Positions 5,711 to 62,339 of a DNA stretch of 64,000 nt are shown here, one piece after another. The translations under genes were made by a program, and so were the position numbers. Every line of letters starts with the position of its first letter. Position 1 is the first letter of the stretch. This stretch comes from Eledone cirrhosa (taxonomy: Eukaryota). The notes under the pieces are model-generated. The model saw only the letters and a list, made by a program, of their open reading frames with translations. It made no database searches and was not told the DNA's origin. The stretch spans positions 34,720,001-34,784,000 of the forward strand of contig OZ024744.1 of NCBI GenBank assembly GCA_964016885.1, in the 5' to 3' direction.

Positions 5711-7069
5711 TACTTTTAAGAATAAACTTAATCTGCTACCTAGTTTAACAACACCTTTAGATATGTTTATCAAAGTTCACTGTTATAAGCATTCAAACTA
5801 GCTCTTCGATTTGAAAATAACTTTCTTATTTCCTTCAACTAGTCTCAGAAGTGGTGAAGAAACGAGTTGGATCAGATCATGTTTGCTGCCCTTCCACCTC
5901 TGACTTAAACAATAAAACAAATTTGGCAATTAGTATCCATATAAACCACGTCCTGTCTTAGAAAATCACAATGTGAAAAGAAACTGTGACTTTAGCACAC
6001 TAACAGACTAGGTAGCTCAGAGCAGCTTGATATTATTTTCCATGTGAAAGATGACAATACTATACTAATTAGTAACACAAAGATACTGTCTATAATATAG
6101 TGTAGATGTGTGCTGTAAAGCTAACGAATTACTTCTACTTGTCAATTGAATTAATTAAAATGATTATGGCTTTTCAGGAAACTGTCTGCCATACCATTTG
6201 TAATTAGTACAATCGGAGTGATACATAAAAGAAAAAAAAAAGGAGTCGATCATCAGATCCGACGTCAGATACTACGTTCCCATTATTCTATCCATTGTTA
6301 ATACTATCTGCTTGTCACAATTCCTGACAGGAAGAGACGGGATTTGAACTCAGAGCTCACATTAGGTACCCCAAAGCATCACGTCTGACTAGCAACTCCC
6401 TCAATCCGTCCACTGTTCAATATCCCCTGGACAAGTACTTTATTTATTGATCCCAAAAGGATGACAGATAAAGTTAGCCTTAGCGGCATTTGAACTCAGA
6501 GCACAGTGAGCCAAAACAAATGCCAATTATTGTAATCCAGCGCTTTAATACCAATTGGTAACCCCTTTTGTAAATACACTAACAGACTACCTATAACAGC
6601 GATTTAGCAGAAGCACGAGAGCATCAAAGGAAATCCCTTGTGATCTGATATTTATTTCGGCTCTTTGAGTTCTCAGTTCAAATCCTGCTGAGGTTAATTT
6701 TGCTTTTCATCATTTCGATAAATGAAGCATTAGTTTAGAGTGATGGATTGGCGGAATAACTAGCATGTCAGGCGACAAATCTTGTAGTGTTTGTTCCTGT
6801 TCTTTGCTCTTTAAGTTAAAACCATAACGTCACCTCTTTCAGATGTAGACTTAATCCATCCCCCCGTTTAACACTACATCTAATAATTCACTACATTTAG
6901 GCGATTCCACTCTGTTACAGGCGGTTAGGTCAGGTCTCCGTCTCTTTCTCCCTCGAGCCTCAAAGTCTCTGTAAAAAATAATGCATACTGTCCTATTTCC
7001 TGACTAAGCGATATAAAAATAAACGACATAGTCCCGTTACAGAAAATAACTTTGTTAGGAACTGTAAAT

Positions 7070-7257
7070 ATTTGTTTCTACTTTAGGCACAAGGCCAGCA
7101 ATTACCCAGTTCATTACTGGTACTTTATTTTATCGACCCCGTAAGGATGAAAGGCAAAGTCAACCTCGGCGGGATTTGAACTCAGATCGTAAAGGGACGT
7201 AACTATGCTGGAAAGCATGGCGTCCGACCCTCTACCGATACTGCCAATCCACCGCCA
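7070..7257 (-). mobile_element. tRNA-derived SINE (abundant family). Diverged relatives at ~6430-6550, 6600-6720, 7300-7400
   Basis: Essentially the reverse complement of 58095-58283: Pol III A/B-box-like head, ttgcctttcatccttacggggtcgataaaataaagtaccag core, agtagaaacaa tail. Confidence 0.85.
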
Positions 7258-13338: not shown

Positions 13339-16190
13339 TCTTCTGATTATATAATTTTATAGATTCTTTACCTATGGGGAGAGAGTCGGTTTCTAACATA
13401 GATACATCAACTATGTAGTTATGTATGCATGTCTGCATGCATGCATATCTATGCAGGTATGGATGTTATTGTATGTGTGGATGTGGATGTTTTGAGTTTT
13501 ATGTGTGCATGTGCATTGCTTTGTATCTGTACAAGTGTATATGCAGTTAGTAGATGCAGAATTTTTGGAATGTTTTACATATTTTTACTATTCCATTAAT
13601 GGATAGTACTTGTAATTTATTAACTAATCGTTTCCTTTCTGTTTCTGAGAAGCCCAGCATTTCAAGATTTGTACTAAGGCAGTTACTAACATATCCCAGT
13701 GCCCCGATAATTACAGGTTTAAATCTGAAGGTGTAATCAGGGTGGAGTAACTGCAGATTTCTCATTAGTTTTACATAAATATTCTCCTTTTCGCTAATCT
13801 TTGATATTATATTGGCATCTGCTGGGCAGCTAACTTCCACCACTGTGCATGCCTTCTATTCTCTGTCCCATATCATTATATCTGGTCTGTTATGCCTGCA
13901 TTTTATTGGGGTTTTTACTGGAACATTCCACGAGTACTCTTTCATATTATGTATATGTATGTCTTCCACATTGCTGTAGCTTTTAATGTTTATTATCGGG
14001 GCTATCTTTTTTACAGATTGCATTGTACTGTGTTTTGGCCACTACATCATGCCTCATAAGTAGATAGTACTGTGCTGACATCTTTGGACAGCTGCTTATG
14101 ATATGGGTGACATCTTCGATGTTAATTCTGCAGGGTCTGTATTTGTTGTCACATCTAAGTGTTTTGCCTGCATCCCTATCTCTTTTGTGAATCAGGTATT
14201 TCGTGTTGATTTCCTGTTCTTCGATTGCAAAAGCGTATCCTTCAAAGTGGTAGCCAATATAACGATAGTTGGTCCAAGATAGACTACTTTGTTTATCTAT
14301 ATTACTCTCACTCTGGAGCTTCCTGACAACTTCCCTGGGTGTGAGTTTTAATTATCATGCAGGAAGTATCTTTCAAGGAATTCCCTCCCAACTCTCATGA
14401 TCTTATCTGTTTCATGCAGATAGAGTTGCTCAATAAATGGGCTTCTACGCTTCGAGGCTCGTAGATGTTGTCGGAGGGATATGATGCGATATTCAAATGT
14501 TGTCTGGACTGATGTTAGGCCTCTGCCTCCCTGCTTACGTTTCAAGTAAAGGCGGTCTATGTCACTGTTGATGTGGAAGTTTCTGGTGTTGTTTAGTATT
14601 TTCGAGTTCCAACATCAACTGCTCGGATCTCGTCTATCGTCCAATTGAGTATTCCAAACGTTGGTGTTAGGACAGACACAGCAAACACATTGTGAGCCAC
14701 TGTTTTGTTTTGCACAGAGAGTTCCGATGACCAGATCTTTCTTGATATGGTGTAGTATTCCCTGGTTACGCGTTCTTTATTACAGATACCATTATAGGAT
14801 ATGTTCTCATCTATCGCCAGGTATCTGTAGCAGTGCTCATCAGATATCGGTGAAACAGTTAGGCCATTGATGACAATGTTGCTAGATTGGGTTGTAGTTT
14901 TTCCCCGCTTTACAGTCATATTTGAACTTTTATCTTGCACAAACTCCGTTCCTATATCTTTTGAGAATGTTGTAACCAAGTCAAGATTTTTTTTCCTCCC
15001 ATTTATGGTCTTGGCATAGAGTTTCAGGTCATCCACAAAGAAAATATGGGTTATAATCGTATTTCTGTCCTCCTGTGAGCTAATGATGTATCCTTCACAT
15101 TTCTTGAGCAGAAAGGACAAGGGGTTTAATGAGAGCGTAAATAGTATCACAGAGAGATTGTCTCCTTGAAATATAACCTTGTAATATTCTATTTTATCAG
15201 TGAAAATAGAGTTCCCCTTTTCTGTTTTTAACTTTAGGATAGTAGCCCAAGAAGAAGACAGCTTCTTTGTGGCTCTGAAAATAATGTCTGGGACTTTAGC
15301 AAGTCGGAGGGCCTCTATCATCCAAGAGTGGGGAACAGAATCGAAAGCTTTCCCGTAGTCCAACCAGACTATAGCCATATTTCTCCTAAGTTGCCGCACC
15401 TCCGACATCGCAGTTTTGTTGATTAGGAGTTGTTCAGCACACCCCCAAACACCTTTCTGTCCAGCTGCTTGTTCATCTCTGATAATGTTATTATTTTCAG
15501 TGATCTTGGAGGAATAGGTTCAGGCAGCCTGTATACATCTTATACATCAGGTCCTGGCATGCAATGGGTCGGTAGTTTTTGCTAAGTGGGTGTCTTTGTT
15601 CTTGGGGACCAGTAATCTTTGTGCTAATGTCAACCATTCTGGTATAAGTGTATCTCTCTTAAGAACTTGTTGGTAGATGTCAGTAAGATACCTCCGATAG
15701 AATATCAGTTTTTTGTACCAGTAGCCGACAATCATGTCTCTTCCTGATGTTTTCTTATCTTGGAGTTTTCCTATCACAGTCTCAAGGGTACCCTCACTTA
15801 TTTCGTATGTTTCTGTTGTAGTGTAGGATCAATAGCTCTTTCGGATTTCTTTTAGCCACACTGCATCTTGGTTGAAATTCTTCTTTTCACTCCATATTTT
15901 TCTCCAGAAGGAATCTATGTCTTTCTGGGATGGGGCCTCAGTGACACTTATTATTTTGCCCTTTATATGTCTATAGACTGATGTTTGGTTTCGTCTGAAT
16001 CTTTTATAAAGTACTTTTCTTTCGTCTACCTACTTCAGGTATCGATCTTCCTCCCTGACAGCACCCAATTCTTGTTTTAGGATGATCAGCTTATATTGAA
16101 GAGTTCTAGTTGTACAGTTACCAAACATCGTTTCTCTTCGTTGGCGAGGAGTGAAGTTGTTTGCGTTTGTTTGCAGGTAAGGCGCATTGT
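13339..16190 (-). mobile_element. 5'-truncated decayed R4/Dong-clade non-LTR retrotransposon (RT, CCHC, RLE)
   Basis: WLDYGKAFDSVPHSW, IFQGDNLS, FFVDDLKLYA, RKQGGRGL, CRxC...HIISSC, RHDVVA, HNRPDI, VEVSCP. Both ends abut (ATAC)n. Confidence 0.9.
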
Positions 16191-16717: not shown

Positions 16718-16961
16718 GTTTGTTTGTTTATATGCGCAGGGACATAAAACTAGTCGGTTTGAATCCCGAGCACATGGTTAGCTCGTCGAGAGTGAGAAAC
16801 CCTTCCATCTTGTTAGGATATCATTATAGGAAAAGGGAAACTCTGATGTAAAGCCTGTAACACGATGGCAACCAATGAGGTTAAAATAATCACAAGTTCT
16901 TCAATTGAAACAACCAATATCCTCCTTGTTTAACACGAAAAAATCCATAATTGGTACACAG

Positions 16962-17070
<109 letters not shown>

Positions 17071-17185
17071 AACGGGCTGTGACCCTGTCGCGGGACCACC
17101 AACACGGCCAGTCTGTGGAGCTAACATTGCTAGTAACTACAGACTGTCCTACTTCCTCTCCCTGATCATACGCCCCATCATTGAG

Positions 17186-18937
17186 ATGTCCCCAGATGTA
17201 TTTGACAGCACGGAGGACCTCCTCAGCAGAATCGGCGTGAGAAACCGATCTGGGGACCTAACAGACTGCATAATAGGCAGTATGGATGTTGTGTCCCTGT
17301 ATCCATCTATTGACGTGGATTTTGCTGTGGAGAAATGCGTAGAAATGATCAGCGAGAGCAAGGTTGAGTTCCGTGGGATTGATACCAGTGAGCTGGGAAT
17401 TCTACTTAAGCTTACCCATAGTAATAGTTACCTAGACACTTATGACCTTAGCAACCTGTGCCCTACAAGACCAGCAAGAGGCAGACCACCTACCATTACC
17501 TCAATGGCCAAGAAAACCCACACAGATAGATGGAACGGGTGGACCAGAGCCATACGGACACCCGAAAACCACGATGAACTGAAGAAAATGATTGCACATG
17601 CGGTAGGGGCCAGCATAAAATTAACCCTTAAGGAACATATGTTCAAATTTAATGGTAAAACATATGCCCAAGAGGAAGGAGCAGTCATTGGTGTTAGCAT
17701 TGCAGGCGACATAGCTAACTTATTCATGGTATGGTGGGACAGTAGACTTAAACAAAAACTTAAAGAACAATTAAAAGACAGCTTAACCCTGATAATGTAC
17801 TCCCGCTACGTAGATGATATAAACATCGTAGTTAAGACACCCCCACTAAAGAACAGTCAGGAACTAGAGAAAAACACAATGGAAAGCATCCAGCAAATAG
17901 CAAACTCCATCCACCAGAGCATTAGAGTTACTATAGACTACCCAAGTAGACACCCCAACCATCGATTACCTGTACTAGACACAGAGCTCTGGTTAGATAC
18001 CATTAACAACCAAAAACAAATCCTCCATTCCCATTACGCCAAACCCATGACTTCCAAACATCTGATCCACCGAAACTCGGCCATTTCGGACCATACCAAA
18101 ATCAACATACTGATTGCGGATTTGGTACGGGTGATGAGAAATGTGTCCCGCATGTGCAACCCCGAAGAACTAGAGAGACACATACAACACTTCATCCACC
18201 GTATGCAGTTCTCTGGCTACAATCAGAGCGATAGAATCAGAGTGTATAGAGGAGCCAGAACCAAATGGGAAAAAATGGTAAATAATGACATAAATGGGAC
18301 CTGCCCCTTGTATAGGAGCAAATTTTGGAATAGAATAAAAAGAACTAGGAACAAGGCCAATAGAATAAACTCATGGTATGATAACAATAAATACCAGAGT
18401 GTAATGTTCATCAATACAACCCCTAGAGGCGAACTAGCCTACAAATTTAGAAGGGCCCTAAATAAACATAAACTCAATATTAAGATAGTAGAAAGACCAG
18501 GTACCTCCGTAAAAATACTTATTAGCAAGACATACCCGTTCCCAAAACCCTCATGTATAGATAAGAAATGTATAACCTGTAAAATAATCCCCCATATTAA
18601 CTGTAAAACTAGAAATGTAGTGTATAGCATAAGATGAACTGAAGGACAATGTAGAAACAAAAATATAGTGTACATAGGTGAGACAGCTCGTAGTATAGGG
18701 GAACGAATAAATGAACACTGGCTAGACCTTCAAGATAATAAAGAATCATCTGTGCTCTACCAACATGCTAAGATAGAGCACAAGGGCAAATTAGAGAACA
18801 TAGAAATAAAAATAGAATCCGCACACAGAAAAGATGCAATGTTTAGGCAAATTACAGAGGCAGTAAGCATAAAAGAATTACAACCAAAATTAAATAGAAA
18901 ATATGAGTGGAACAGCAACATCACAACTTACAATTAA
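17186..18937 (+). pseudogene. Penelope RT-GIY-YIG polyprotein with a single in-frame TGA at 18635-18637
   Basis: GSMDVVSLYPSID, YAQEEGAVIG, YSRYVDD, LPVLD, CxxxxCxxC, NVVYSIR*TEGQC...VYIGETARSIGERINEH...RQITEA. ORFs 17186 and 18668 are in the same frame. Confidence 0.9.
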
Positions 18938-19153
18938 GGACAGAATGAAAACACACACACACATAGAACAAACAACCAACCAACAACATGTAAATAAATA
19001 AATAAATAAATAAACAAATAGATAAATGAACACAAACACACACAGACACCCGGATGTGGCGCATGCGCAAACTGAGCACACAACACACACACAAAAACAA
19101 AATGGCGTAGGACAGAGGAAAGGAAAGGCACAGAAACAAAGAAAGGAATCCCC

Positions 19154-19198
19154 AGTCACTGAAGAGGTCACAGAGTGTGTGACGAAAGGACTATGACT
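19154..19198 (+). ncRNA. Minimal type I hammerhead ribozyme motif in Penelope pseudo-LTR
   Basis: AGUCA-CUGAAGA-G-GUCACA gagug UGUGAC-GAAA-GGAC-UA-UGACU. Stem I is 5 bp, stem II 6 bp, stem III minimal. Confidence 0.8.
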
Positions 19199-19416
19199 AT
19201 ATATAAACAACTATCTGGTTGTGGAACCAACCAACCAACCAGAAATTTATAAGTTTGTAGATTTGTAAATTTATAAATTTATAAATATATAATAAATTGA
19301 AGTGAAAGCAACTGGTGCGTGTGTTTCTTATTGGCAACATGACCCTCCCAAAGTATAACAATATCGGTTTCAACACACGATTTCAGATAAAGAATCTTGC
19401 TAAACAAATTCAGAAA

Positions 19417-19505
<89 letters not shown>

Positions 19506-19587
19506 TATATTGTTATATTTGGGGAGGGTCATATTTGCGTAATATTGCCAGAATTAATAATATAAGTATATAAATATTTATATATAT

Positions 19588-23139: not shown

Positions 23140-26100
23140 AATGGACGAGTAGAGAGGGCCCATGAGTCCAGTAAGACATCCTCTCTAGTGCTGGTGGCAC
23201 AAATGAAAGCACCCTGTCCATGCTGTAAAGTGGCACTGGTGTTCGGAAGGGCATCCAACCAGTGTATCAATGCCAAAACGATTATAAGCACAGCAACAAA
23301 TATATAGGAACAACAAAATATGAAGACGCCGCATCTCAGAGTTGCAACACTTAATGTTGGCACTCTCACAGGTAGATCTGGTGAAATAGCGGAGATGCTG
23401 GAGAGAAGGCATGTGGATGTGTGCTGCGTGCAAGAGGTGAGATGGAGAGGTGCCTCTGGGAGACTAGTCGTAGGCAAATATCTTAGCTATAAGCTTTTCT
23501 GGGTAGGTAAGGATGATGGGTTAAGGGGAGTAGTCATTTTCCTGGCTGAGAGATGGATCAATAAGAGAATAGAGGTAGTTCGAGTTAGTAATCGAATAAT
23601 TAAGCTTAGATTAGTTGTAGGCAGGAGACTACTGACAATCATCTCTGCCTATGATCCCCAAGCAGGCCTAGGCAAAGATGAGAAAACTGCTTTTACGAGC
23701 AACTTTTACAAATAACCTCAATGACAGAGGACGGAGACATCGTTATGCTAGCAGGGAACTTCAATGGTCATGTTGGACAGCTGGGGTACATGGTAGGCAC
23801 AGTTACGGCTCAAGAAATGAAGAAAGAGTGAGACTTCTTGAATTTTGTGATGCAAGTACACTGACTATTTGCAACACAAACTTCCAGAAACCTGCTAACC
23901 ACCTAATAACCTACAAATCAGGCGAGCACATAAGCCAGATTGACTTCTTACTAGTTAGTCAGCGGACAGGCAGATGGTGTCTAATATCAAGGCATACCCT
24001 GGGGAAGAATGTACCCCACAGCATAGGTTAGTCGTTAGTGTTATCTCAGTAAGCAAGAGATGGAATGAGACACACAGGAAGGTGTGGAGAAGAAAGGTCT
24101 GGAAGCTAAAAAACCTTTCACTAAAATACAAATTTGGGAAAGCCCTTCAAGATGTGTATGACGAAAAAGAAGACGCTTTAGAGACGTATGACATAGATAA
24201 TAACTGTAATTTCTTACGTGACAACTTATTGCAAGCTGCTGATAAACGTGTGGCTGGAGCAGAGCTCCAACCAGACAGAGAGTCACCTGGTGGTGGAACA
24301 GCACAGTAGATAAGGCCATTAGAGACAAAACACTAGCATGGAAGGCTTGGAAAAAGGGTGGGAGTATAGAAGGATATAAAGCCGTTAAGAGAGAAGCTAG
24401 ACGTCAGGTGTACTTAGCATGCAGGGAGGCTGAGAGTAGAAGGTTTGCCAATGTTCTGCGACGGGAAGATCAGAGGCGTGAGGTGCTCTGCATTGCAAGG
24501 CAGTGTGTCAATGCAAATCAGGATGTTGTTGGAGATATGTGTCCGGATGATGCCGGTGAACTTACTGTCACGAATTATCAGAAAAAGGAGGCCTGGAAAT
24601 GTCATTATGAGAGACTGATGAATGTGGAGAACGAATGGGAGAGAGAAAAATTACCTTCAGTAGACCCGACAGAGGGACTAGCTATTGAGATTGAGGAATA
24701 TAGGGTCCAAGAGGCGATTAAGGAAATGAAAAATGGTAAGGCTGCTGGACCATCGGGGATAGTTGCTGAGATGCTAAAGGCATCAGGGGACGTAGGCACT
24801 AAACTGGTTGCACGCATCATCAATCAAGCTATATATGGTGGTGTCATACCAAAAGACTGGTGCAGCAGTATTCTCATAAATTGCTACAAAGGTAAAGGGA
24901 TGCTCTGGAGAGGAGCAATTATAGGGGTATAAAACTGATGGATCAGGTTATGAAAGTGGCAGAAAGGATATTAGCACAACTCATTAGAGAAGGGGTCAAA
25001 CTAGATGAGATGCAGTTTGGTTTTGTGCCTGGGAAGAGTACAACAGATGGCCTCTTCTTGGTGAGACAATTACAAGAGAGGTTCTTAGAGAAAAATAAGC
25101 CACTATACTTAACCTTTGTTGACCTAGAGAAGCCCTTTGATAGGGTACCCCGGTCTGTCATCTGGTGGTCCCTAAGGAAACTATGTGTTGAGGAATGGCT
25201 TGTGAGGACAGTGGTACTTTGTACAGAGGTACTGTCAGTAAAGTCAGGGTAGAAATGGAGTTTAGTAAGGAATTCCAGATATAAGTAGGAGTACATCAAG
25301 GTTCGGTTCTCAGCCCGCTCTTGTTCATTATAGTCCTCCAAGCCATAACAGAGGAGTTTAAGACTGGCTGTCCATGGGAACTTCTCTATGCTGACGATCT
25401 GGTTCTTATAGCAGAATCAGTAGAGGAGCTAGAGAATAAATTCTGGCTCTGGAAACAGCAGTTGGAAGCAAGAGGACTGAGAGTGAAGCTAACTAAGACA
25501 AAAGTGTTGATGAGTAGAAAAGAGGACAAAACCCTGATTCCATTAGGGAAATGGCCATGTTCGATATGCAGAAAAGGAACTGGCATAAATTCTATAAAAT
25601 GTACACAATGCAGATCCTCTGTACACAAGAGATGTAGTGGGATAGCAGGCAAACTAACAGGTAGGGAGTAATACGTATGCAGTAGATGTACAGGGAAATG
25701 TACAGTAGAAGTCGCATTGATATAAACATTTTTCAAATGGCGGGTGCTATAGAAGTGGTGGATAGCTTCCGGTACCTAGGAGATCAGATTAGCATGGGAG
25801 GGGGAGGGGGGTGTTCCGAGGCCATAGTATCTATAATAAGGACGGGTTGGAAGACGTTTAGGGAGCTGCTTTTTCTGCTGACGAACAAGGGTTTCTCCCT
25901 GCGTACGAAAGGCCGGTTATATGATGCCTGTTTGAGGAACGCGATGTTGCATGGTAGTGAGACATGGGCAGCAACTGCAGAGGATATGCGAGGGCTGGAG
26001 AGAAATGAGACAAGCATGCTCTGTTGGATGTGCAGTGTCAATGTGAACGACCCAGCATAAATGTGTTGAGAGAGAAACTGTGTCTGAGAGGGATAGAATG

Positions 26101-26388
26101 TAGTGTGCGAGAAAGAAGAATGAGGTGGTATGGACATGTGATGCGCATGGAGGATGACCGATGGGTGAAGAAGTGCCAGGAAATGCCAGTTGAAGGAAGA
26201 CGTGGTAGAGGTAGACCACGAAAAACATGGGCGGAGGTGGTGAGAGCAGACCTCAGATCATTGAAGCTCACGGTGGAGATGACGAAGGACCGTGAAAAGT
26301 GGAGAGATGCTGTGCTGAATTAGAACCATCCCACCCTGGCAAGCAGGGAAAAGCGGAGGTAAAATAATGATGATGATGAGGATGAGGA
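23140..26388 (+). mobile_element. Nearly full-length decayed RTE LINE (APE + RT) with (GAT)n tail
   Basis: TLNVGTLTG, CVQEVRWRG, SQIDFLL, QHRLVV, QFGFVPG, FVDLEKPFD, LLYADD, RWYGHVMR, GRGRPRKTW. Many frameshifts. Tail gatgatgatgag. Confidence 0.93.
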
Positions 26389-26559
26389 TATATATATATA
26401 TATATATATATATAAATCAGGATTGATTCAGTTAGAAACTGGTAAGACCATTACTCACCAGAATACTCAATATTTAGGGTACATATATAAAAGATCCTGG
26501 AACTAGCTGTTGGAAAGGCAAGAGCTCAGCCGTCTGAGTCCCGACTTTTTCATATATAT

Positions 26560-28003
26560 ATATATATGAAAACAGGGAGAAAGAGAAGATTATTAGGAAG
26601 AAAAAAATTTTTTTTTTCCTTTTTTGTCTCTCTCTCTCTCTTTTCTGGGTTAGAAAATGATTAAAACGAAATGTTTTACTTTGTGTGAAGTGTTAAGGTA
26701 TTAGTTGATTAATTTATTATTTAAGAATGGCATTTATTTATCTATTTATATATTTAATTATTGTCTATTACCGGTTTCTGCATTTATATACATTATCAAA
26801 TGATAGTGAGATGTATCAGTGTGGTGTCGCACATGTTACACAGAAGGTGCAGAAAGAATAATGTTATTTACAAACAAGGTTTATGAAGTGTAAAGAAAAA
26901 AGAAAAAAGAAAAAAGAAAAAAGAAAAAGAGAACGGACATAATGTAGAGCATAAAAAGTCAATGTGGAAGAAAAAATAATGTTATTTACAGGCATAGTTC
27001 TTGAAGTTAAGCAGTTCAAAATGTGTTAATATAGCAAGAGTACTTAGTTGATCCATGATTCCATGAAGGAGGCAAATGGTGGACTGAGGTTTGATATGAT
27101 TTCCCTTTTTAGAGAGTTAATATGCAGGGGGAAGCAATTCTTGCTGGATGATATTTAATTTATTTAAGAAAAAGGGTTAAGTAGGGTGTGAGGCAGGTAA
27201 CTTTGTAAATGTTTGATTGTTGCAGTTTTAGATTGGTCCGATTTTTAGAGCATTAAGTAGGGGTTGGAAATTGTTAATGAAATGTGTTTCCTTATTGGTA
27301 CGTTGGATGAAAGTAGCGTTGTCTATGAATTTGTAAATGGGGAAAACTTTAAAGTTTGGATGTTGGTTGTGAGCCCAATTGGCGATATGTTCACTAAATG
27401 CAATCTTTCTGTATTCCTGTATTTTAATTTGTGATTTATGGACGGTCATACGTTGTCGGAGGCTGTTTTTTGTCTGTCCTATGTAGTGCTCTTGACAACC
27501 TGAGCAGGTCAAAACATAGATTAGGTTTTCAGATGCACATGTAAAGTTGTGTTTAACTGTGAAACGCTGTCCTTGTTTAAAATGTAATGTTGAACCTGCT
27601 ACACACGACTAGAAGAATTAAAAAACACACTTATCAGCAGAAACTACCCACCATCTCTAATCAAAAAGGGATTCCAACGTGCCCTAAAACTAGACATCCA
27701 GGAACTCAGACACCCCAAACGCAGGAATGAACCGCAACAAAAAACTCTACCATACATCTCCACACACAACCCCCTCAGCAATGAGGCATTCGACACCATC
27801 CTCCAGAACATTCCTTTACTAAAAAGAGACCCAAGAATGAACAAAATCCTCCAAACGCACAACATCATAAAGAGCAAAAGACAACCTAAATCCATAAAAA
27901 ACATCCTCACACAAGCCAAAATCCAACAAACCCTCACAATGAACCCTACAGTAACAAAATGCGGAAGGCCCAACTGTGGCATATGCATAAATCTAATAGA
28001 AGG
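26560..28003 (-). mobile_element. Penelope-like element 3' part with inverted 5' segment (27598-28003 on + strand)
   Basis: Minus strand gives FTCASENLIYVLTCSGCQEHYIGQTKNSLRQRMTVH (GIY-YIG). Plus strand gives RNYPPSLI...LPYISTHNP...RQPKSIKNIL...KCGRPNCGIC (thumb/linker). Confidence 0.88.
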
Positions 28004-28206
28004 GAATCTGAAAAGGTAACGGGCGAAGGATTCAAGAGTACACGCTTTGTCCGTTCCCATGTCGATTCAATTTGGATTGCCTCGGAAACATAACCTTATT
28101 ATGTAAGAAGCTGTCTGGTGATGTCACGGCACTGGGCACACCGAAGCGTGTGGCCTCTGTCGTCATTGAAATAGTATCACAGCATTATCATTAAAAGACT
28201 TTAACA

Positions 28207-29263
28207 TCTGAAACTACTTCGCTTTTTCTTATATATATATATATATATATCTATATATATATTAGAAGTTAGAAATTATAAGCTTTCACCGTATTTTAGA
28301 CTAAAGAAATTTCTAGCCTGATAGTGGGGTTTATAACCCTCGGAGAAATGGAAAAAGATGAGTGTTGCCGTACATGGGAGTCGAACCCACATCTTTGGTT
28401 ATCCAGACCACTGTGCTACCATTACACCAATACACATCCCATCTCCTTCCATTCGAATTAGAAGCTATGAACTTAGCAAGTGAATGATAAACAAGCAAAT
28501 TATAAACGTAAACATGTAAGTATGTTTTTGAAACGGTGCGCGAATTTGAAATTAGAAGTTAGAAATTATAAGTTTTCACCGTATTTTAGACTAAAAAAAT
28601 TTCTAGCCTGATAGTGGGTTCGACTCCCATGTACGGCAACATTCATCTTTTTCCATTTCTCCGAGGGGTTTATAACCCCACTATCAGGCTAGAAATTTCT
28701 TTAGTCTAAAATACGGTGAAAGCTTATAATTTCTAACTTCTTATATATATAGATATATATATATACATATATAAGAAAAAGCGAAGTAGTTTCAGGTTTA
28801 TAACCCTCGGAGAAATGGAAAAAGATGAATGTTGCCGTACATGGGAGTCGAACCCACTATCAGGCTAGAAATTTTTTTAGTCTAAAATACGGTGAAAACT
28901 TATAATTTCTAACTTCTAATTTCAAACTCGCGCACCGTTTCAAAAACATACTTTCATGTTTACGTTTATAATTTGCTTGTTTATCATTCACTTGCTAAGT
29001 TCATAGCTTCTAATTCGAATGGAAGGAGATGGGATGTGTATTGGTGTAATGGTAGCACAGTGGTCTGGATAACCAAAGATGTGGGTTCGACTCCCATGTA
29101 CGGCAACACTCATCTTTTTTCCATTTCTCCGAGGGTTATAAACCCCACTATCAGGCTAGAAATTTCTTTAGTCTAAAATACGGTGAAAGCTTATAACTTC
29201 TAATTTCAAACTCGTGCACCGTTTCAAAAACATACTTACATGTTTACGTTTATAATTTGCTTG
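28207..29263. repeat. Nested tandem + inverted array of a ~290 bp unit containing an internal tRNA-like cassette
   Basis: Unit starts attagaagttagaaattataag at 28261 and 28551. 28207-28388 mirrors 28615-28796, and 28797-29200 mirrors 28261-28680. Confidence 0.9.
29035..29105 (+). pseudogene. tRNA-like Pol III cassette (mirror copy at ~28365-28435, -)
   Basis: A-box tggtgtaatggtagcac, B-box ggttcgactcc, tggt/acca anticodon-like stem, oligo-T 10 nt downstream. Acceptor stem imperfect. Confidence 0.75.
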
Positions 29264-29433
29264 TGTGTAATTAATACACGCATGCATTTATTTTTTTAAT
29301 TTTAATTGAGTTTTTAACACGTTGGATTGATAATGTTTTTTGAAAAAACTAATTAACCCGCGTGAATATTATTTTTTCTTTTCTCGTGTACTGGTTGTCT
29401 CCCCTTCCCGCTTCGTGACGCTATAATACTTCC

Positions 29434-29523
29434 TCAGTCAAAAACTGCTGGAATTTCAAATTTGGCGGTCATTCGATGCGTGAGGGAGCAGCTTAGCAGA
29501 CACGATTTTTAACTGCGGTAAGA
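29434..29523 (+). promoter_or_regulatory. Candidate initiator (TCAGTC) and non-coding first exon ending at a GTAAGA donor
   Basis: CpG-containing non-repetitive patch, TCAGTC at 29434, cg|gtaaga at 29517/29518, 2.9 kb upstream of the TRPC acceptor. Motif-level evidence only. Confidence 0.3.
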
Positions 29524-29989
29524 ATTTTTTCATATATCAAAGTTTAATGGGCTTCCACTGATGATTTATAGGCGCCCACCTAAATATATTCTTACATGAA
29601 TATATGTTAGGCTTCTACATAAACTGGAAACATTCTCCTAATTTGTAGAAAACTTATAATGAAACAATTGTTTGGAAAGAGAGATATATTTTAACTTTAA
29701 TTATATCTCATAAAATAATACAACTGGCTTTCCACATAATACATATAGTTAGCACCCCAAACACTTAAATTGGGTTTATACTAACATATAACCTAATGTT
29801 TGTTGAGTGAGATGGTTACCAGTCAGAGTTTAGCTTTAAGCTATCTCTGTTATTGTATTAAATATATATAGGGTGGAGTCTTCGACTTGGCCTGAGCATG
29901 GACTCAAACTCAAATGAAATGAAATATATATATATATATATATAGTGAGGAAACATAAGTCAATTGCATGAACTCATAATCCTTTATTT

Positions 29990-31742: not shown

Positions 31743-32451
31743 TATATATTCACACACAAGACCTTGATCAACCTGAGGCTATAGTAAAAGACACGTGCCC
31801 AAGATAGCATACAGTGAGACTGAATCCAGATTTAACTGGTTTCAAAGTGAACTGTTTTAACTGATTAGATACACTTGTAACAATAAATAACCCACGGATC
31901 AAATTGGGAATTCGCTATTTATATTTTCATGTAAAAGTTATTAAGCATTATATTTGACATTTTCATTTGCATTAATATCTTGATAACTGATGTAACTACA
32001 CGACCGTTTTAATGTCATTTTTTCCATCATAGCATGAGTCAGTGAACCTTGCGAGCCCATGGCAGGTTTTATGCTCACTATGGAGTCCTTTATGAAGCAA
32101 TTTTTTACAGCCATATTCAATAGCCTTTGGTATAGCTTTCATTATGTAAAATCTCCCTATTTTGCCTCATTTCTCCCCGTTTTGGGGCCCATCTTTTCAT
32201 GGTTTGGGTTTTTAGAGGTTGGCAGGTCTGCATATGCCTTCCTTCTACCAAAGCTTTCAGCTCTCTTTTACAACTATCAGAGATATTGTGTGCCTATTCT
32301 AATCCAGGTCCAATATATATTAATAATTAATACATATATAATTAATAGTTTTTCATCTTTCTTATAATTTTTTTAATTTTTTTTTTTTTTCATTTTATAA
32401 ACATCAGATATATTTTCTATTTTGCAGAAAGGAAAATCTGAAAATACGAAA

Positions 32452-33378
32452 ATGCCCTATCTAAACAAAAGAAGCAGCACTCGGTGCGGTCCTACTGGAC
32501 GGGGCGGTGTTCTAATTCCACTTGAACCACTGAAGGAAGGTCATCGAATCGATCCACAAGAAAGAATTTTCCTAGAAGCAGCAGAAAAGGGAGATAAGCA
32601 CACTATGATACGATGTTTGCAAGGCCCAAACCCTGTAAATGTTAATTGTACGAACATGCTAGGTCGATCTGCCATACAAATTGCTGTGGATAATGAAAAT
32701 ACAGAAATAGTAGAGCTCTTGCTGAAACAAGAGGGTGTGAAAATTGGAGATGCAGTACTGTATGCTATCCGTGAAGGTGTGTATAAGATAGTAGAGATGT
32801 TGATTGATCACCCAAGTGTTACACGGGGAATGCTTGGATCGGAGTGGTCTAAAACGAAACATGGAAACGAAGAGAGTTCAGACTATTCCCCAGATATATC
32901 ACCCGTTATTTTAGCTGCCCATTGTAACCAATTTGAAATTCTTCAGTTATTACTTCTTCGCGGTGCCACCATTGAAAGACCACATGAACTGTCTTGTTCT
33001 TGTAAGAAATGTCAAGAACATGTTCACGAAGACAGTCTCCGACATTCTCTGCTGAGAATTCACACATACAAAGCATTAGCTAGTCCTGCGTGGATATCTT
33101 TGACAAGCCTCGATCCCATTTTAAGTGCTTTTAAATTATCGTGGGACCTTGCAAAAAAGGGATTAAAAGAAAATGAATTCAAGGATTTATATTTCGACTT
33201 AGCAATGCAATGCAAGCGATTCGCGTGTGATCTATTGGACCAATGCCGGAGCAGTGAAGAGGTAATTGCTGTATTAAATAAAGAAACATCTTCTGATGAG
33301 GAGGAAGAGCCGAGCTCAAGTGGAGAGAAACTTACTTTAGCACGATTGAAACTAGCTCTGAAATATGAACAGAAACAG
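32452..33378 (+). CDS. First large coding exon of a canonical transient receptor potential (TRPC-family) channel: ankyrin repeats + TRP_2 region
   Basis: ERIFLEAAEKGD, VNCTNMLGRSAIQIAVDNEN, DISPVILAAHCNQFEILQLLL, PHELSCSCKKC, DSLRHSLLRIHTYKALASPAWISLTSLDPILSAFKLSW, ENEFK, LARLKLALKYEQKQ. Acceptor ttttgcag| at 32427, ATG at 32452, phase-0 donor |gtatgt at 33379. Orthology not assignable by eye. Confidence 0.95.
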
Positions 33379-33973
33379 GTATGTATTCAAAGAATTATTT
33401 GGTTGTTTAATTCCTTAGTATTTCAGTATTTTGTAGATTCTTATATTTTTTAGTTTGTTTTTGCTTTTTTGTTTTGTTTTGTTTTTATTATTTTCGGTAT
33501 TTCTTTAAACTCAGTTTATCTTTGACCAAGTAGACGTCTGATCAAGTAGACGTCTAATCCATCCAACATGTCCAGGATGTGATTTGAGGAATATATATTC
33601 TAGGTGGTCACTCAACCATGCCGAAACTCATTGATTGTGCTATTGAATATTTAGTTGTCCAAAACTGCTATGTATTTTTCATGATTGTGTACCATTATTC
33701 AACTTTCATACTAAATGTTGTAAATGGCTATTTTGTTTCAATGGATTCATTCCACTGGTTCGTTTGTTTGTGTGTTTTTTGTTTTGTTTTTGTTTTGTTT
33801 TTTTATCTATTTAAGCCTTCCGACACCAAACTGCTGAAACTGCCTCTCATTTTATAATACAAAATTATTTACTTTAAAGAGTTTATATTTATCTAAAAAC
33901 TTTCCATCACAATCTTATGTAAGACACTTTATTAAAGTATGCTTCAAACATCAGATTAATAATGAGAAAGCTA

Positions 33974-36474: not shown

Positions 36475-37520
36475 CAATTGTTTCTTATATAGGGCACAAG
36501 GCCAGCAATTTTGGGGTAGAAGAAAGTTGATTTAATCGACCCCAATGCGTGACTGGTACTTTATTTTATCGACCCCGTAAGGATGAAAAGCAAAGTTAAC
36601 CTCGGTGGGATTTGAACTCAGATCATAAAGGGCCGTAACTCTATACTGCAAAGCATATTGTCCGACGCCCTACCGATACTGCCAATCCGCTGCCCTAGTT
36701 TCATTAATAAAACTAGTTTACATATTTCTTTTATATTCTACGTTTTTATAATAGTCATTTTCCTTGTAACTACCCCTTTTCTGTTTTAAAACCCATAAAA
36801 AATGATTTTTGTGTTGTTTTCGGGGGCTGGAACAGATTATATATATTTCAATTAATTTCAATGGGGAAAATTGATTTGTAAAACAGATAAATCGTAAAAC
36901 AAGCTCAGATATGGAATGAATTAAACTTATACGGCGAGATATCACTGTATTCTAAAGATCTATCAAAAGTGATTTGAAAAGAGCAGATGTTTTAGAAAAG
37001 ATAAAAAATAGCAAAATATGGAATGATTTCTTTGGCAGTCTTTTTTTATATAACTCTTATCCAAGGTTGAAAATTTAGCTTGTAACATGTCGTTTTAGAT
37101 CATTATACTTGGGTGGTTGATTGGCAGTATTGGTAGGAGGTCGGACGTCATGCTTTGCAGCATAGAGTTATGGTCCTTTACGTTCTGGGTTCAAATCCGG
37201 CCGAGTTTAACTTTGCCCTTCATCCTTGCGGGGTCGATAAAATAAAGCACCAGTAATGCACTGGGATTAATTGCTGGTCTTGTGCCAAAAGTAGAAACAA
37301 TTATATTTGGGCAGTAGATTGGCAAAATCGGTAGAGTGCCAGCCAAAATGCTTTGTGGCATTTAGTTACGACATTTTAACGTTCAAATCCCGCCGAGGTT
37401 AACTTTGCCTTTTATCCTTAGGAGTCGATAAAATACGACACCAGTAACACAATGTGGTCAACTTAATCAATTTTCCCCTCCCTCAAAATTGCTGGCCTTG
37501 TGTCTAAATCAAAAACTATT
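36475..37520. mobile_element. Cluster of tRNA-derived SINEs: 36475-36693 (-), 37112-37303 (+), 37310-37520 (+)
   Basis: Same core as 7070-7257 and 58095-58283. Confidence 0.85.
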
Positions 37521-38945: not shown

Positions 38946-39457
38946 CTGGAGAGGGGCCACACCAAGTGAGAGATATTACATAGATAGAGAGAGAAAAGAG
39001 AACGCCGTGTGTTTTCGAGGTGACAAAAAGAGGCAGATAGACAGAAATGTATGACTTCACCCTCATCTATATAGAGAGAGGGGGAGCACCAAGCTAAAGA
39101 GAGAGAAAGCGGAACAATTTGTTTAGAGAGAGAGTGTGTGTGTGTGTGAGAGGGATAAGACGACGTTGCCCTCATCTAGTATAATATAATAAAATGTGTT
39201 GCAGACAAGACTGAGTTTTTTATCATGTGTAGAAGGAAATCTAAATATTGAAATGATAAATGGGAAAGGAGAGATTTAGAAAAAAGGTAAAAGAATGTAT
39301 TGAACTATATCAATGACCCAAACTTAGTTTGTCATGACACTCTTCTACAATATTCCAAACATTACTGAACCTATACTTATATTTTAATAGCCTCAAATAC
39401 ACACATACAGACACACACACAAAAGTAAAAGTTCATTTAGAATGGGAATATATATAT

Positions 39458-39885
39458 AATTGTTTCTACTTTTGGCACAAGGCCATCAATTAGTCAGTAC
39501 ATTACTGGTACTTTATTTTATCGACCCCGTAAGGATGAAAGGCAAAGTTAACCTCGGCGGGATTTGAACTCAGACCGTAAAGGGACGTAACTTTGCTGGA
39601 AAGCATGGCGTCCGACCCGCTTCCAATACTGCCAATTCACCGCCCATATATATATATAATGGTTATATATATATATATAATGGTTCCTGATTTAGACACA
39701 AGGCCAACAATTTTGGAAGAGAGGAAAGTAGATTAAAGCAACCCCAGTACATTACTGGTACTTTATTTTATCAACCCATAAGCATGAAGGCAAAGTTAAC
39801 CTCGGTGGGATTTGAACTGAGAACGTAAAAAGCTGTAACTCTATGCCATAAAGCATATTGTCCGATGTTCTACCGATTCTGCCAA
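39458..39885 (-). mobile_element. Two tRNA-derived SINE copies (39458-39645, 39680-39885)
   Basis: Same family core and tail as 7070-7257. Confidence 0.85.
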
Positions 39886-43088: not shown

Positions 43089-44962
43089 CCGAATTAGTGT
43101 GGTATAGACAGGTGTGGTATAGACATATGTTGTTGAGGTGTATAATTTTGTCAATAGTCTGATATGCCCAGTTCCTGGTTGAGTTGTTATTTCACTGAGG
43201 AAATGGAATCATATGAATTCAAACAAACGAATTTCAGCGTCAAAGGGCCTCTTCTCCCCTCATTGGTCAGTTGTTAGAACATTCCTCATTCAAAAGTCTA
43301 TAGAAGTTCATTCTGAGGCAAGCCAATCTGTAGTTGTTGTTCTTGTTATTGTTAGGTACATCTGACCTCAATTCTTGTGTTGGTAGTGTTGTTATTGTTG
43401 GAGTTAGCTTAAAAAATTGATAAATTGGTAAAAGGAACAAGGTGGTAAAGGAACAAAATAACAAAAAAATGTCAAACTTCCCATTAGTCAGTTTTGAGAG
43501 CATTCCTCAGTCAGAAGTCTGTAGAAATTCTTTCTGGGGTGAGGCTCCCTGTAGTGTTTGTGTATGCTATTGTTAAGTACATCTGACCTCTACCTTTATT
43601 TTGGTAGTGTTGTTGGTGTTGTGGTCAGCTTATGTCTTGCTGCTGCTGACAATTTAGAAGTATCTGTGTGTGTATTTTCTTCATCCCTCCTGCCACCATC
43701 TCCCGTGGTGGTGGCTGGGGGGGGGGGGGGTTCTTCCATGTATATGAAGAAATATAAGGCAATAAATGAAGAAAACAGAAAATAAATAATAAACAGAGAA
43801 TAAAGAATAAATGAAAAATTGGTGAAAAAGTAATGAAAATGAATATGGAGAAGTGAGAAATAAAGTAGCATAAAGTGTGTGTGTGCTATAACCAATCTCA
43901 AGGTCGGAACTATGTTGGATAGATTGGTATGAGGGACAAGATGTTAAAATAATAAAAGAATAAAGGAATAAGATAATCAAACAAAATGTGTTTGTGTTAT
44001 AATCAATCTCAACTTAAAAATAAATATAAGGTGATAAAGTGAAGAGAACAGAAAACAAATAACAAATTAATAAAGAGAAATTAAGATTTAAAATTGGAAA
44101 TTGAAAATCAGAAATCAAGTAAATTAAAATGTGTTTGTGTTATATAGATGTTGGCCAAATTATAATGGCTGTGTCCGATAGAATCTCTAAGCTATCATGG
44201 TGTCCGCTCAGACTGGGTTGTTCCCTATGGCTTGAGGGGAGTTCTCAACCTAGGGTGTTGTTACTGCCCATATAGCTTGAGGGAGGTCTGGCCGAGAGGT
44301 GTCTACATGTTCAGGAGAAGTCCCTATAGCTTGAGGGGAGTTCATATCTTCTTGTGATGCTACTGTCCATATATTTTGAGGAAGGTCCCGGCTCTAAGGT
44401 GTCTGCATGTCCCGAAGAAGTCGGTTCTGAAGATGTGAACTCCTCTCAAGCTATAGGGACTTCTCCTGAACATGTAAACACTTCTCGGCCAGACCTCCCT
44501 CAAGCTATATGGGCAGTAAACAACACCCTAGGTTGAGAACTCCCCTCAAGCCATAGGGAACAACCCAGGCTGAGCGGACACCATGATAGCTTAGAGATTC
44601 TATCGGACACAGCCATTATAATTTGGCCAACATCTTTATAACACAAACACATTTTAATTTACTTGATTTCTGACTTTCAAGTTCCAATTTTAAATCTTAA
44701 TTTCTCTTTATTAATTTGTTATTTGTTTTCTGTTCTCTTCACTTTATCACCTTATATTTATTTTTAAGTTGAGATTGATTATAACACAAACACATTTTGT
44801 TTGATTATCTTATTCCTTTATTCTTTTATTATTTTAACATCTTGTCCCTCATACCAATCTATCCAACATATTTCTGACCTTGAGATTGATTATAGCACAC
44901 ACACACTTTATGCTACTTTATTTCTCACTTCTCCATATTCATTTTCATTACTTTTTCACCAA

Positions 44963-45065
44963 ATCCCGCCGAGGTTGACTTTGCCTTTCATCCTTACGGG
45001 GTCGATAAAATAAAGTACCAGTAATGCACTGGGTAATTGCTGGCCTTGTGCCTAAACTAGAAACA
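44963..45065 (+). mobile_element. 5'-truncated SINE with 16-bp TSD inserted in the right palindrome arm
   Basis: attactttttcaccaa at 44947-44962 and 45066-45081. The left arm shows the empty site (ttggtgaaaaagtaat, ~43819-43834). Confidence 0.9.
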
Positions 45066-45896
45066 ATTACTTTTTCACCAATTTTTCATTTATTCTTTAT
45101 TCTCTATTTATTATTTATTTTCTGTTTTCTTCATTTATTGCCTTATATTTCTTCATATACATAGACCCCCCCACCACCACCACCACCACCACCACCACCA
45201 GCACCACTACCACCAGAGATGGTGGCAGGAGGGATGAAGAAAAAACACACACAGATACTCCTAAATTGTCAGCAACAGCAAGACATAAGCTGACCACAAC
45301 ACCAACAACACTACCGAAATAATGGTAGAGGTCAAATGTACTTAACAATAGCAAACACAAACACTACAGGGAGCCTCACCCCAGAAAGAATTTCTATAGA
45401 CTTCGGACTGAGGAATGCTCTCAAAACTGACCAATGGGAAGTTTGACATGTTTTTGTTATTTTGTTCCTTTACCACCTTGTTCCTTTTACCACTTTATCA
45501 TTTTTTTAAGGTAACTCCAACAATAACAACACTACCAACACAAGAATTGAGGTCATGTGTACCTAACAATAACAAGAACAACAACTACAGATTGGCTTGC
45601 CTCAGAACGAATTTCTATAGACTTTTGAATGAGGAATGTTCTAACAACTGACCAATGAGGGGAGAAGAGGCCCTTTGACACTGAAATTCGTTTGTTTGAA
45701 TTCATATGATTCCAGTTCCTCTGTGAAATACATATATATATATAGATACATATATAGATACATATATATACATACATATATATATATATATATATACTTA
45801 CATATATATATATACGTACATATATATACACATATATATACATACATATATACATATATATACACATATACATACATATATACATATACATACATT

Positions 45897-46604: not shown

Positions 46605-46670
46605 TCTTACATATATATAAACCTATATATATACACATACATATATATATAGATACATATATATACATAC

Positions 46671-46701
<31 letters not shown>

Positions 46702-46930
46702 CATATTTCGTTTCTGAATTTGTTTAGCAAGATTCTTTATCTGAAATCGTGTGTTGAAACCGATATTGTTATACTTTGGGAGGGTCATGCTGCCAATAAG
46801 AAACACACGCACCAGTTGCTTTCACTTCAATTTATTATATATTTATAAATTTATAAATTTACAAATTTACAAACCCATAAATTTCTGGTTGGTTGGTTGG
46901 TTCCACAACCAGATAGTTGTTTATATATAT

Positions 46931-46975
46931 AGTCATAGTCCTTTCGTCACACACTCTGTGACCTCTTCAGTGACT
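46931..46975 (-). ncRNA. Hammerhead motif, identical to 19154-19198
   Basis: Reverse complement agtcatagtcctttcgtcacacactctgtgacctcttcagtgact. Confidence 0.8.
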
Positions 46976-47096
46976 GGGGATTCCTTTCTTCGTTTCTGTG
47001 CCTTTCCTTTCTTCTATCCTACGCCATTTTGTTTCTGAAACAAAATGGCGTAGGATAGAAGAAAGGAAAGGCACAGAAACGAAGAAAGGAATCCCC

Positions 47097-47141
47097 AGTC
47101 ACTGAAGAGGTCACAGAGTGTGTGACGAAAGGACTATGACT
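47097..47141 (+). ncRNA. Hammerhead motif, identical to 19154-19198
   Basis: agtcactgaagaggtcacagagtgtgtgacgaaaggactatgact. Confidence 0.8.
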
Positions 47142-47203
47142 ATATACATATATATACACACATATATATACATACATATATACATATACATACATATATA
47201 TAT

Positions 47204-54175: not shown

Positions 54176-54312
54176 AGCTCTCACTACTGTTGCTGTACAA
54201 CTACTGCTACCAGTTCTATTATTGTTCACCTGTGGTTTATTAACATAACAACATAACACCAGGCTACACATGTTATAGTCAATTCAATAAGTCTAGTACA
54301 TAACTGGTAAAT

Positions 54313-54490
54313 AATTGCTTCTACTTTTGGCACAAGGCCAGCAATTTACCAGTGTATTACTGGTACTTTATTTTATAAAGATGAAAGGCAAAGTCAACCG
54401 CAGCGGGATTTGAACTCAGTCCGTAAAGGGACGTAACTCTATACTGTAAAACATGGCGTCCGACCCTTTACCGATACTGCCAATCGACCC
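54313..54490 (-). mobile_element. tRNA-derived SINE. Further copies 56895-57083 (-), 58300-58470 (+), 58480-58580 (+)
   Basis: Family core and tail. Confidence 0.8.
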
Positions 54491-55130
54491 CTCCACACTC
54501 ACCCATACACACAAACACATACACTCCCACACATACACTCCCACACATACACACACACACATACACACACCCATACACACAAACACATACACTCCCACAC
54601 ATACACTCCCACACACACATACACACACACCCATACACACAAACACACACACTCCCACACATACACTCCCACACACACTCCCACACACACACACCCACAC
54701 ATACACTCCCACACACACATACACTCCCACACATACACTCCCCCACACACACCCACATACAAGGTCAACCTAAAAAGAATTCACTTTTAGAATGTAATGA
54801 ATGATGAATGTGAAATACTGAAGTAATCATCATCATCGTCATCATCATCATCATCATCATCATCATCGTCATCGTCATCGTCACCGTCATCATCATCGTC
54901 ATCGTCATCATCATCATCATCATCATCACTGTATAATGTCTATTTTCCCTGCTTGCATGGGTTTGATGGGTTGTCATACTATAAGGCCAGACAGGTGCGG
55001 TGACTACATCCTGTTTTTGTTCTGTTTTTGTCTTCATTTCTATGGTTAGATGTCTTTCCTAACATCAAGAACTTTACTTTACAGTGTATACTGGGTGTTT
55101 TTATCCTGACTACAGCATTACCATATAGAA

Positions 55131-58094: not shown

Positions 58095-58283
58095 TGGCGG
58101 TGGATTGGCAGTATCGGTAGAGGGTCGGACGCCATGCTTTCCAGCATAGTTACGTCCCTTTACGATCTGAGTTCAAATCCCGCCGAGGTTGACTTTGCCT
58201 TTCATCCTTACGGGGTCGATAAAATAAAGTACCAGTAATGCACTGGGTAATTGCTGGCCTTGTGCCTAAAGTAGAAACAATTA
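58095..58283 (+). mobile_element. tRNA-derived SINE, full-length reference-like copy
   Basis: tggcggtggattggcagtatcggtagag (A-box), gagttcaaatccc (B-box), conserved core, aaacaattattat tail. Confidence 0.88.
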
Positions 58284-59683: not shown

Positions 59684-59756
<73 letters not shown>

Positions 59757-59761
<5 letters not shown>

Positions 59762-60001
59762 ATACTTTGGGAGGGTCATGTTGCCAATAAGAAACACACG
59801 CACCAGTTGCTTTCACTTCAATTTATTATAATAAATTTATAATAAATTTATAAATTTATTATAAATTTATTATAATAAATTGAAGTGAAAGCAACCGGTG
59901 CGTGTGTTTCTTATTGGCAACATGACCCTCCCAAAGTATAACAATATCGGTTTCAACACACGATTTCAGATAAAGAATCTTGCTAAACAAATTCAGAAAC
60001 G

Positions 60002-60005
<4 letters not shown>
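59757..60005 (+). mobile_element. Penelope 3'-tail fragment with inverted duplication (palindrome 59757-59945) within (TA)n
   Basis: 59875-60005 matches 19290-19420. 59757-59830 is its reverse complement. Confidence 0.9.
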
Positions 60006-60070
<65 letters not shown>

Positions 60071-62097: not shown

Positions 62098-62339
62098 CTT
62101 GACATTCAGGAAAGGTGTAAATATTGGCATGAAAAATTAACCCTCAGTTTCCAAGAGAAGTATTTTGTGCAATGTTTACTTTACACTAAGTTACAGACAT
62201 TGCCTTGTCACTTTCACTGTGAACCATTAATTATTTGATTACTGGAAACCTGTAAACACAGGTGGTGTTATTTACCTGTTGTGATTATGTATATAATATG
62301 ACAGACAGGTCAAAAGAAAACATAATCCTCTTCATTTTT

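Follow-up and report, generated by a model that had tools for sequence, protein, structure and literature searches.

A rearranged array of a non-coding ~290-bp repeat with an internal tRNA-like module, and its likeness to PLE insertions

Sm-alpha and Sj-alpha of Schistosoma carry a tRNA-derived module (of tRNA-Gln-TTG in Sm-alpha), are apparently transcribed by Pol III, and form tandem copies, where transcription of a unit comes from the one upstream of it and a multimeric RNA provides the template (PMC6765202, PMC2770079); in Sm-alpha, an active hammerhead excises the monomers. Non-LTR retrozymes are likewise non-coding, tandem units of ~300 bp with low GC content and a proposed dependence on PLEs (PMC7229834; bioRxiv 10.64898/2026.07.22.740005); their defining traits are a type I hammerhead per unit and circular RNAs. 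The preprint reports them as relatives of PLE pLTRs, from which they are derived, and its main text contains the terms "tRNA", "Pol III" and "promoter" zero times. For the PLEs themselves, insertions have been described as partially tandem, the 5' end carrying an inverted copy and one of the two ends a tail of 30-40 bp (PMC8557442), and those of the Neptune/Naiad type show a (TA)n target and no clear TSD (PMC8557442, PMC11167929). (TA)n is the preferred target of Naiads, which are devoid of canonical hammerheads, a CX2-5CxxC linker is the mark of Neptune, Nematis and Naiad (PMC8557442), and non-autonomous head-to-tail derivatives are known, among them non-autonomous Chlamys elements such as MRC1 (PMC8557442, PMC11167929). 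A PLE enzyme has been found to initiate internally at two adjacent sites and to cut and extend both strands, hammerhead cleavage being dispensable in vitro (PMC11167929). The comparison literature further spans PMC4209133, PMC13282606 and bioRxiv 10.1101/596502.

Here we describe an array at positions 28208-29264 of a 64,000-nucleotide stretch of microsatellite-rich, animal-like DNA, which as a whole is referred to as the window. Judged by analogy with the systems above, its repeat unit may work like a non-LTR retrozyme or Sm-alpha and insert like a PLE. The retrozyme-type non-coding tandem unit is present (monomers of 290 and 271 bp), but a hammerhead, the defining part of retrozymes, has been found in neither window copy; the same absence sets the unit apart from Sm-alpha, by description and not by sequence, and the present family is known from DNA alone. 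Inverted arms, tails and TA targeting are seen here, whereas they are not described for Sm-alpha and Sj-alpha in the available passages of the two reports (PMC6765202, PMC2770079). With PLE insertions the array shares the partial tandem with an inverted 5' copy, the one-sided tail and two adjacent start sites. In contrast to PLEs, it has no ORF, a predicted internal tRNA-like promoter in place of the pLTR promoter, a tail of 61 nt instead of 30-40 bp, and no 3' similarity to an autonomous partner, as judged from the one PLE 3' UTR in the window that was compared. Canonical tRNA SINEs, for their part, are characterised by A and B boxes, a tRNA-like head at the 5' end, a TSD and a LINE-related 3' tail. 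The present family has in common with them the A/B boxes, the tRNA-like fold, a high copy number and a simple-repeat 3' neighbourhood, but its tRNA part is not at the 5' end, its copies are permuted and can exceed a monomer, a TSD is missing, and 5' fold-backs recur; self-BLAST found no similarity of the unit to the LINE fragments of the window. Neither a canonical SINE head, nor a functional tRNA gene, nor a Helitron 3' end has been recognised in the unit. A hammerhead-free, tRNA-bearing PLE passenger has not been found in our literature searches, to whose scope most subscription journals, Repbase and supplements did not belong.

Layout of the array and of a second copy

According to a longest-match parse, the array consists of two-armed inverted copies of a unit of 290 bp, inside which a tRNA-like cassette is placed. 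The left arm starts behind flank F (28208-28261, +), which comprises 21 nt and a (TA)n tract, and is built of unit U1 (28262-28551, +; found by repeat search and parse), which is antisense to the tRNA-like RNA, and of a partial second unit U2p (28552-28618, +) with two bases, 28573T and 28596A, that parse and family reads mark as derived. The head-to-tail repeat at 28261/28551, already pointed out in a first-pass annotation of this DNA, has been recovered as a 68-nt direct repeat of 97% identity with a spacing of 290. At switch J1 (28614-28618) the hairpin side is joined to the T-arm on the other strand; this flip had been placed correctly at ~28613-28620, but its exact microhomology is 5 nt (GTGGG) and not the 7 nt (gtgggtt) originally given. 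Behind J1, positions 28619-28795 are the reverse complement of 28385->28208 and pass back through the unit's own TA flank, as had also been noticed. This stretch is composed of a fold-back copy of 28385->28326 (28619-28678, -), with a derived base at 28642 and an inverted hairpin loop (28668-28678), and of a central patch (28679-28795, -), in which the inverted start of U1 is followed by the inverted copy of F (28742-28795, -) and 2 nt are absent at the TA junction. The second flip, formerly given as ~28796, has been confirmed by the parse as a switch at 28795/28796 with 1-nt microhomology, which leads into the reverse complement of ~28672->28262. The right arm (28796-29203, -) is an inverted U1-U2p-J1-fold-back with a U1-type hairpin and a 7-nt slip at 29196/29197, and it is extended by a one-sided "tail" of 61 nt (29204-29264, -), the reverse complement of 28551->28491, which ends near a start point of the family, is exclusive to the right arm and is missing at the start of the left one. 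Both arms are 99% complementary over 321 nt and differ privately by substitutions (28517/28954, 28544/28927, 29215), the 7-nt slip and the loop inversion. A 29-nt core occurs three times in the window and in none of 100 shuffles. Only short stop-to-stop frames of 75 and 87 aa are contained in the array, and its Rfam matches to miRNAs and sRNAs have been discarded as products of the palindrome and the TA tracts.

On the tRNA-sense strand, the unit is read as leader, cassette with A box and B box, T5, GC hairpin and AT-rich region. The left cassette (28366-28438, -) and its counterpart in the right arm (29033-29105, +) have been detected by both ARAGORN and Rfam, with an Rfam tRNA score of 38.1 bits against a cut-off of 29; in the left one, the A box lies at 28419-28429 and the B box at 28378-28386 (-). 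The oligo-T run T5 (28352-28356) is located 10 nt past tRNA position 73 within a trailer (28345-28362, -), for which pairing with the leader (28438-28454, -) is predicted to give a stem of ~15-17 bp around the tRNA-like fold. The cassette and its oligo-T are hence situated inside the unit and not at a 5' head, in agreement with the first reading. Three of the locus's switches map to the GC hairpin, GGGGTT-NNN-AACCC(C/T), at 28326-28340.

A second copy of the family, ~80% identical, is found behind (TA)n at 61812-62097 (+), where a 271-nt monomer is followed by 15 nt of overshoot and closed by a 9-nt fold-back (62098-62106, -; hairpin arms 62079-62087 and 62098-62106). Its tRNA-like cassette (61959-62031, -) has a full acceptor stem and reaches 50.9 bits in Rfam, the GC hairpin has a preserved stem and a different loop, and the start register is 40 nt away from that of U1. 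As the 15-nt terminal repeat aligns within U1 (11/15), it is an overshoot and not a TSD. This copy (61812-62106 with its fold-back), the loop inversion at 28668-28678 and the slip with the 61-nt tail are additions to the earlier description. Both window copies (2/2) begin at (TA)n, which is present on one side only, and have no discernible TSD; ordinary TSDs, by which the previous reading was to be judged, are seen flanking neither. Flank F is probably target DNA, because the right flank starts with GTGT, as does the DNA after 7/102 TA-tract ends in the window, although this evidence is weak.

The family in public runs and its tRNA-like module

Alignment of four of the 12 public runs listed to the monomer 28329-28618 at 82% likeness has yielded 1750 contigs (run X1) and 2277 and 1817 reads (X10 and X11) for organism A, and 11 contigs (X4) for organism B; the family is high-copy. 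Contig 9 of X4 runs from 28426 to 28618 and then from 28329 to 28392 with 6 differences and is an independent crossing of the seam between U1 and U2p. Among the 20 of 354 loose ends listed, TA- or A-rich flanks abut 28487 (13 X1 contigs), ~28557 (one X4 contig) and 28567 (eight), further start positions of the family are 28512 and 28552-28567, and with 16 of 1825 pieces listed the start-point picture is partial. Position 28487, a TA-adjacent end in those 13 contigs, is nevertheless passed through by U1, X1 record 6 and X4 contig 9, and 28552, where U1 has an end, is crossed by X1 records 7-8, X4 contig 9 and the 62-kb copy. Since the same points are ends in some records and internal in others, all within ~80 nt, the starts are variable yet confined to ~80 AT-rich bases (28487-28567) among the loose ends listed. 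The unit had been called permuted: the registers do vary and a fixed end at the tRNA is missing, but the permutation seen is not random.

Fold-backs make up 5 of the 12 joints listed from the four runs, all of them at 28363-28381, and two are also contained in X1 contigs (depth 274 and 54.6); J1 is absent among these 12. At a loose end behind 28367 in X10 and X11 (130 and 123 reads), the trailer turns back on itself at the acceptor stem and a further short hairpin comes next; the reads may stem from a single locus common to both runs, or from a derivative that has hairpin ends and was amplified. RAD depth and "molecule ends" in the same two runs have been rejected as element ends: they coincide with AATT sites (28459, 28498/28501, 28553, 28564, 28598), so that they reflect library cuts. 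The summed contig depth of X1 drops ~28-fold between 28369 and 28478, a 5' truncation pattern that is confounded by subfamily divergence and does not represent copy number.

The window copies agree at 58/59 positions of the tRNA core, from D stem to T stem, compared with 171/205 ungapped columns elsewhere (Fisher p=0.0017), which suggests that the tRNA module is under constraint. The motifs of the A and B boxes are intact in both copies, and a promoter is predicted from them. A decoding tRNA, on the other hand, is unlikely, because the left cassette combines a GGA (Ser) anticodon with a short variable loop and a U at 37, and because anticodon-loop variants (28404, 28405) are frequent in family reads; the acceptor stem is damaged in U1. 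The leader-trailer stem is predicted in both copies, 14 of 1000 shuffles folding equally well in each, and the isolated duplex of the 62-kb copy shows no strand preference, so a clamp around the cassette has modest support from modelling.

The 22-nt pattern of the anticodon arm has no exact match in the metagenome contigs and none in the viral contigs, and the phage records gave no match. A 21-nt pattern of the D arm hits 11 metagenome loci, which have been excluded as family members, as they match the tRNA part only and are mostly tRNA arrays; the D arm of the cassette matches a tRNA-Gln(TTG) in metagenome contig L009. As a separate observation, the metagenome tRNA arrays L001, L006, L007 and L008 (and L002, L005, L010 and L011) include a 96-nt gene that ARAGORN names tRNA-SeC(TCA), with apparently two tandem anticodon-like arms, TCA and CCA; it is possibly a Trp/opal tRNA with a duplicated arm and not a tRNA-Sec, unrelated to the array.

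Possible origins of the array

No match to a hammerhead has been obtained in either window copy with a relaxed descriptor (one core mismatch, stems I and II) that recovered 4/4 motifs of the window, controls chosen by an earlier core scan. Rfam yielded no ribozyme at E<=10 in the unit copies, a weak negative, as it also missed the control hammerheads at gathering level. The window does contain a hammerhead-bearing non-coding family (19092-19535, 46626-47150 and 59717-60067; copies ~93-95% identical) with minimal type I hammerheads at 19159, 46970 and 47102, (TA)n anchors, palindromic arms of 229 and 194 bp and a 60-nt tail, which is a retrozyme/PLE-end family. Since its anatomy is the same, the TA anchor, inverted arm and one-sided tail of the array are, by this analogy, most likely an ordinary PLE footprint. 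Minimal hammerheads also occur at 30040(-), 43083(-) and 7672(-), with stem III supplied by a TATATA run; those at 30040 and 43083 show 85% likeness over 66 nt, and near the motif at 43083 lies an inverted repeat of ~650 bp (43188-43834 / 45066-45730; 92% identical, 1.2 kb apart).

Outside the element, ~190 nt from flank F, a Neptune-like PLE fragment (27228-28015) is made of two inverted halves, a thumb/CxxxxCxxC linker part (27594-28015, +) and a GIY-YIG part (27228-27608, -), which abut at about residue 627 of the relative P0003; this internal inversion can be likened to twin priming. Its 3' UTR probably extends down to about 26415-26570 and shows no similarity to the unit (best match 10 nt), nor does the hammerhead family beyond one 16-nt match (E 0.048). 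Because neither resembles the unit, the proximity of the PLE may be chance. A PLE reverse transcriptase, which the first-pass annotation had brought up, may by analogy be the copying enzyme, in that the anatomy fits published PLE insertions and the hammerhead family of the window; a helper with matching ends has not been found there.

We consider it rather probable that the array goes back to one complex insertion of a non-coding repeat of ~270-290 bp, reverse-transcribed from a linear multimeric RNA by a Neptune/Naiad-type PLE RT-endonuclease. The tRNA-sense strand would be transcribed into an RNA longer than one unit; its probable source is the tRNA-derived Pol III promoter, whose transcripts would run beyond T5 into the following unit, or else host read-through. 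The PLE enzyme would then cut (TA)n and prime cDNA in the AT-rich zone of the RNA at two sites ~60 nt apart, both target ends being extended, the left arm from register 28262 and the right arm from 28491, on a template that would already have contained fold-back J1. Template jumps at the GC hairpin would finally seal the arms, copying the left-arm start and 54 nt of flank, and the tRNA module would act as a mobile internal promoter carried in each new multimer. The position of T5, 10 nt behind the tRNA, counts against this reading, as most products of Pol III would not reach the length that a template needs.

A circular or multimeric template had been proposed from the outset. The non-identical multimer is favoured, as U1 and U2p differ at 2/68 sites and the right arm has both versions in order, and a circle is not required. 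The bases of U2p are the derived ones, since the family has C at 28573 and G at 28596, and 28642 differs from U1 and the 62-kb copy alike; the right arm carries all three derived bases and, further on, the U1 versions. Either non-identical tandem units and the fold-back were present in the RNA from the start, or unusually error-prone synthesis was followed by copying of the left arm into the right one. Repeated template switching in one pass, as originally suggested, reads less well than two-ended priming with a central patch, which we infer because the right arm has a U1-type hairpin and not the adjacent loop-inverted one, and because it ends at 28491, near the family start 28487. A single-pass route with the right arm copied from the left is possible, and under any model the central patch with its 54 nt of flank needs DNA-templated jumps.

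More tentatively, and somewhat improbably, such repeats might be "PLE-SINEs", in which a tRNA fold clamped by the leader-trailer stem replaces the hammerhead, and the host tRNA machinery (RNase P/Z, tRNA ligase, T-loop methylation) would delimit the template or close it into a circle and bring the PLE RT to a halt, which would give rise to the fold-backs. The modified base m1A58 stalls RTs. The deepest fold-back of the family ends at 28381, the position facing tRNA A58, with another joint one base on, at 28382; short palindromes near 28381 are an alternative cause of the fold-backs there, and the term m1A58 does not occur in the papers listed by a search on it.

We judge it unlikely that the template was instead a circular monomer RNA, retrozyme-like but hammerhead-free, formed e.g. 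by tRNA-processing nucleases and tRNA ligase and circled by a PLE RT. Unit size and GC content fit non-LTR retrozymes, which are circularised by RtcB in vitro (PMC7229834), both window copies are longer than one monomer, and all passes of the array share a locus-specific G at 28268/28558 where the family has A. The 2/68 differences, with both versions in the right arm, would however demand unusually error-prone copying of a circle; moreover, the observed starts are confined to ~80 nt, descriptor and Rfam found no ribozyme in the unit, and folding of the entire monomer does not surpass that of shuffles (z -0.47 and -0.67).

An ordinary tRNA SINE with upstream sequence, mobilised by a LINE, whose array arose later by DNA-level fold-back and template switching of the MMBIR/FoSTeS or polymerase-theta type, appears quite unlikely. 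Such a history is compatible with intact A/B boxes and T5, a 3' end at a simple repeat, the numerous LINE RT fragments of the window, the flank DNA copied in the central patch, the 5-nt microhomology of J1 and the clustering of the three derived bases within ~50 nt of it. It is at odds with the internal position of the tRNA behind an upstream sequence conserved in both copies, with copies that overshoot a monomer, with a right arm that stops at the family start point, and with fold-backs that recur in other copies and in the unrelated hammerhead family.

It is very improbable that the family is real and the array a read or assembly artefact, from fold-back reads, amplification chimeras or a repeat mis-join. 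PLE insertions are known to trouble assemblies (PMC8557442), J1 was not seen in the four runs compared, and the best run contained a fraction of 0.43 of the words of 27900-29700; but the arms differ by private substitutions, the 7-nt slip and the loop inversion, and several switches with different microhomologies exceed what one fold-back read would yield. The same anatomy at three loci of the hammerhead family likewise speaks for a genuine structure. A Helitron 3' end is marked by a hairpin and CTRR. A non-autonomous Helitron/HINE-type DNA element with a circular DNA intermediate giving head-to-tail copies, to which the GC hairpin on the tRNA-sense strand with CTAG 9 nt on (CTAA in the 62-kb copy) would correspond, has been largely refuted, as CTRR is read through in 5/5 passes checked, the ends are variable, and 5' inversions and a one-sided tail are PLE features.

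Other features of the window and implications

An open frame of 350 aa with ankyrin repeats and TRP_2 (Pfam E 3e-25) at 32401-33450 (+), ~3.1 kb from the array, is by its sequence an exon of a TRPC-type channel gene. A 48-bp minisatellite (55076-56288; 24 copies, 93% matches) has an open frame of 286 codons, a candidate coding frame. A dispersed repeat of ~190 bp, probably a SINE, is present in at least eight full or partial copies of 80-99% identity (7067-7257, 36541-36697, 37112-37304, 39447-39660, 44960-45072, 54302-54489, 56892-57105 and 58070-58587). Broken LINE-type RT fragments (RVT_1) lie at 23672-26323, together with a C1/PHD-like finger, and at 365-1928, 14596-15519 and 16934-18634.

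The peculiarity of the repeat is its cargo, a conserved tRNA module without a hammerhead; the rearranged array itself is unsurprising. If the reading as a PLE-copied multimer is true, PLE RTs would be exploited by SINE-like parasites, in which a portable Pol III promoter occupies the middle of the unit and a ribozyme is lacking, and annotation pipelines would misfile them under SINEs, tRNA pseudogenes or satellites. With its two mapped start zones and a switch-prone hairpin, the short unit would then lend itself as a compact substrate to studies of tandem and inverted insertion by PLEs.
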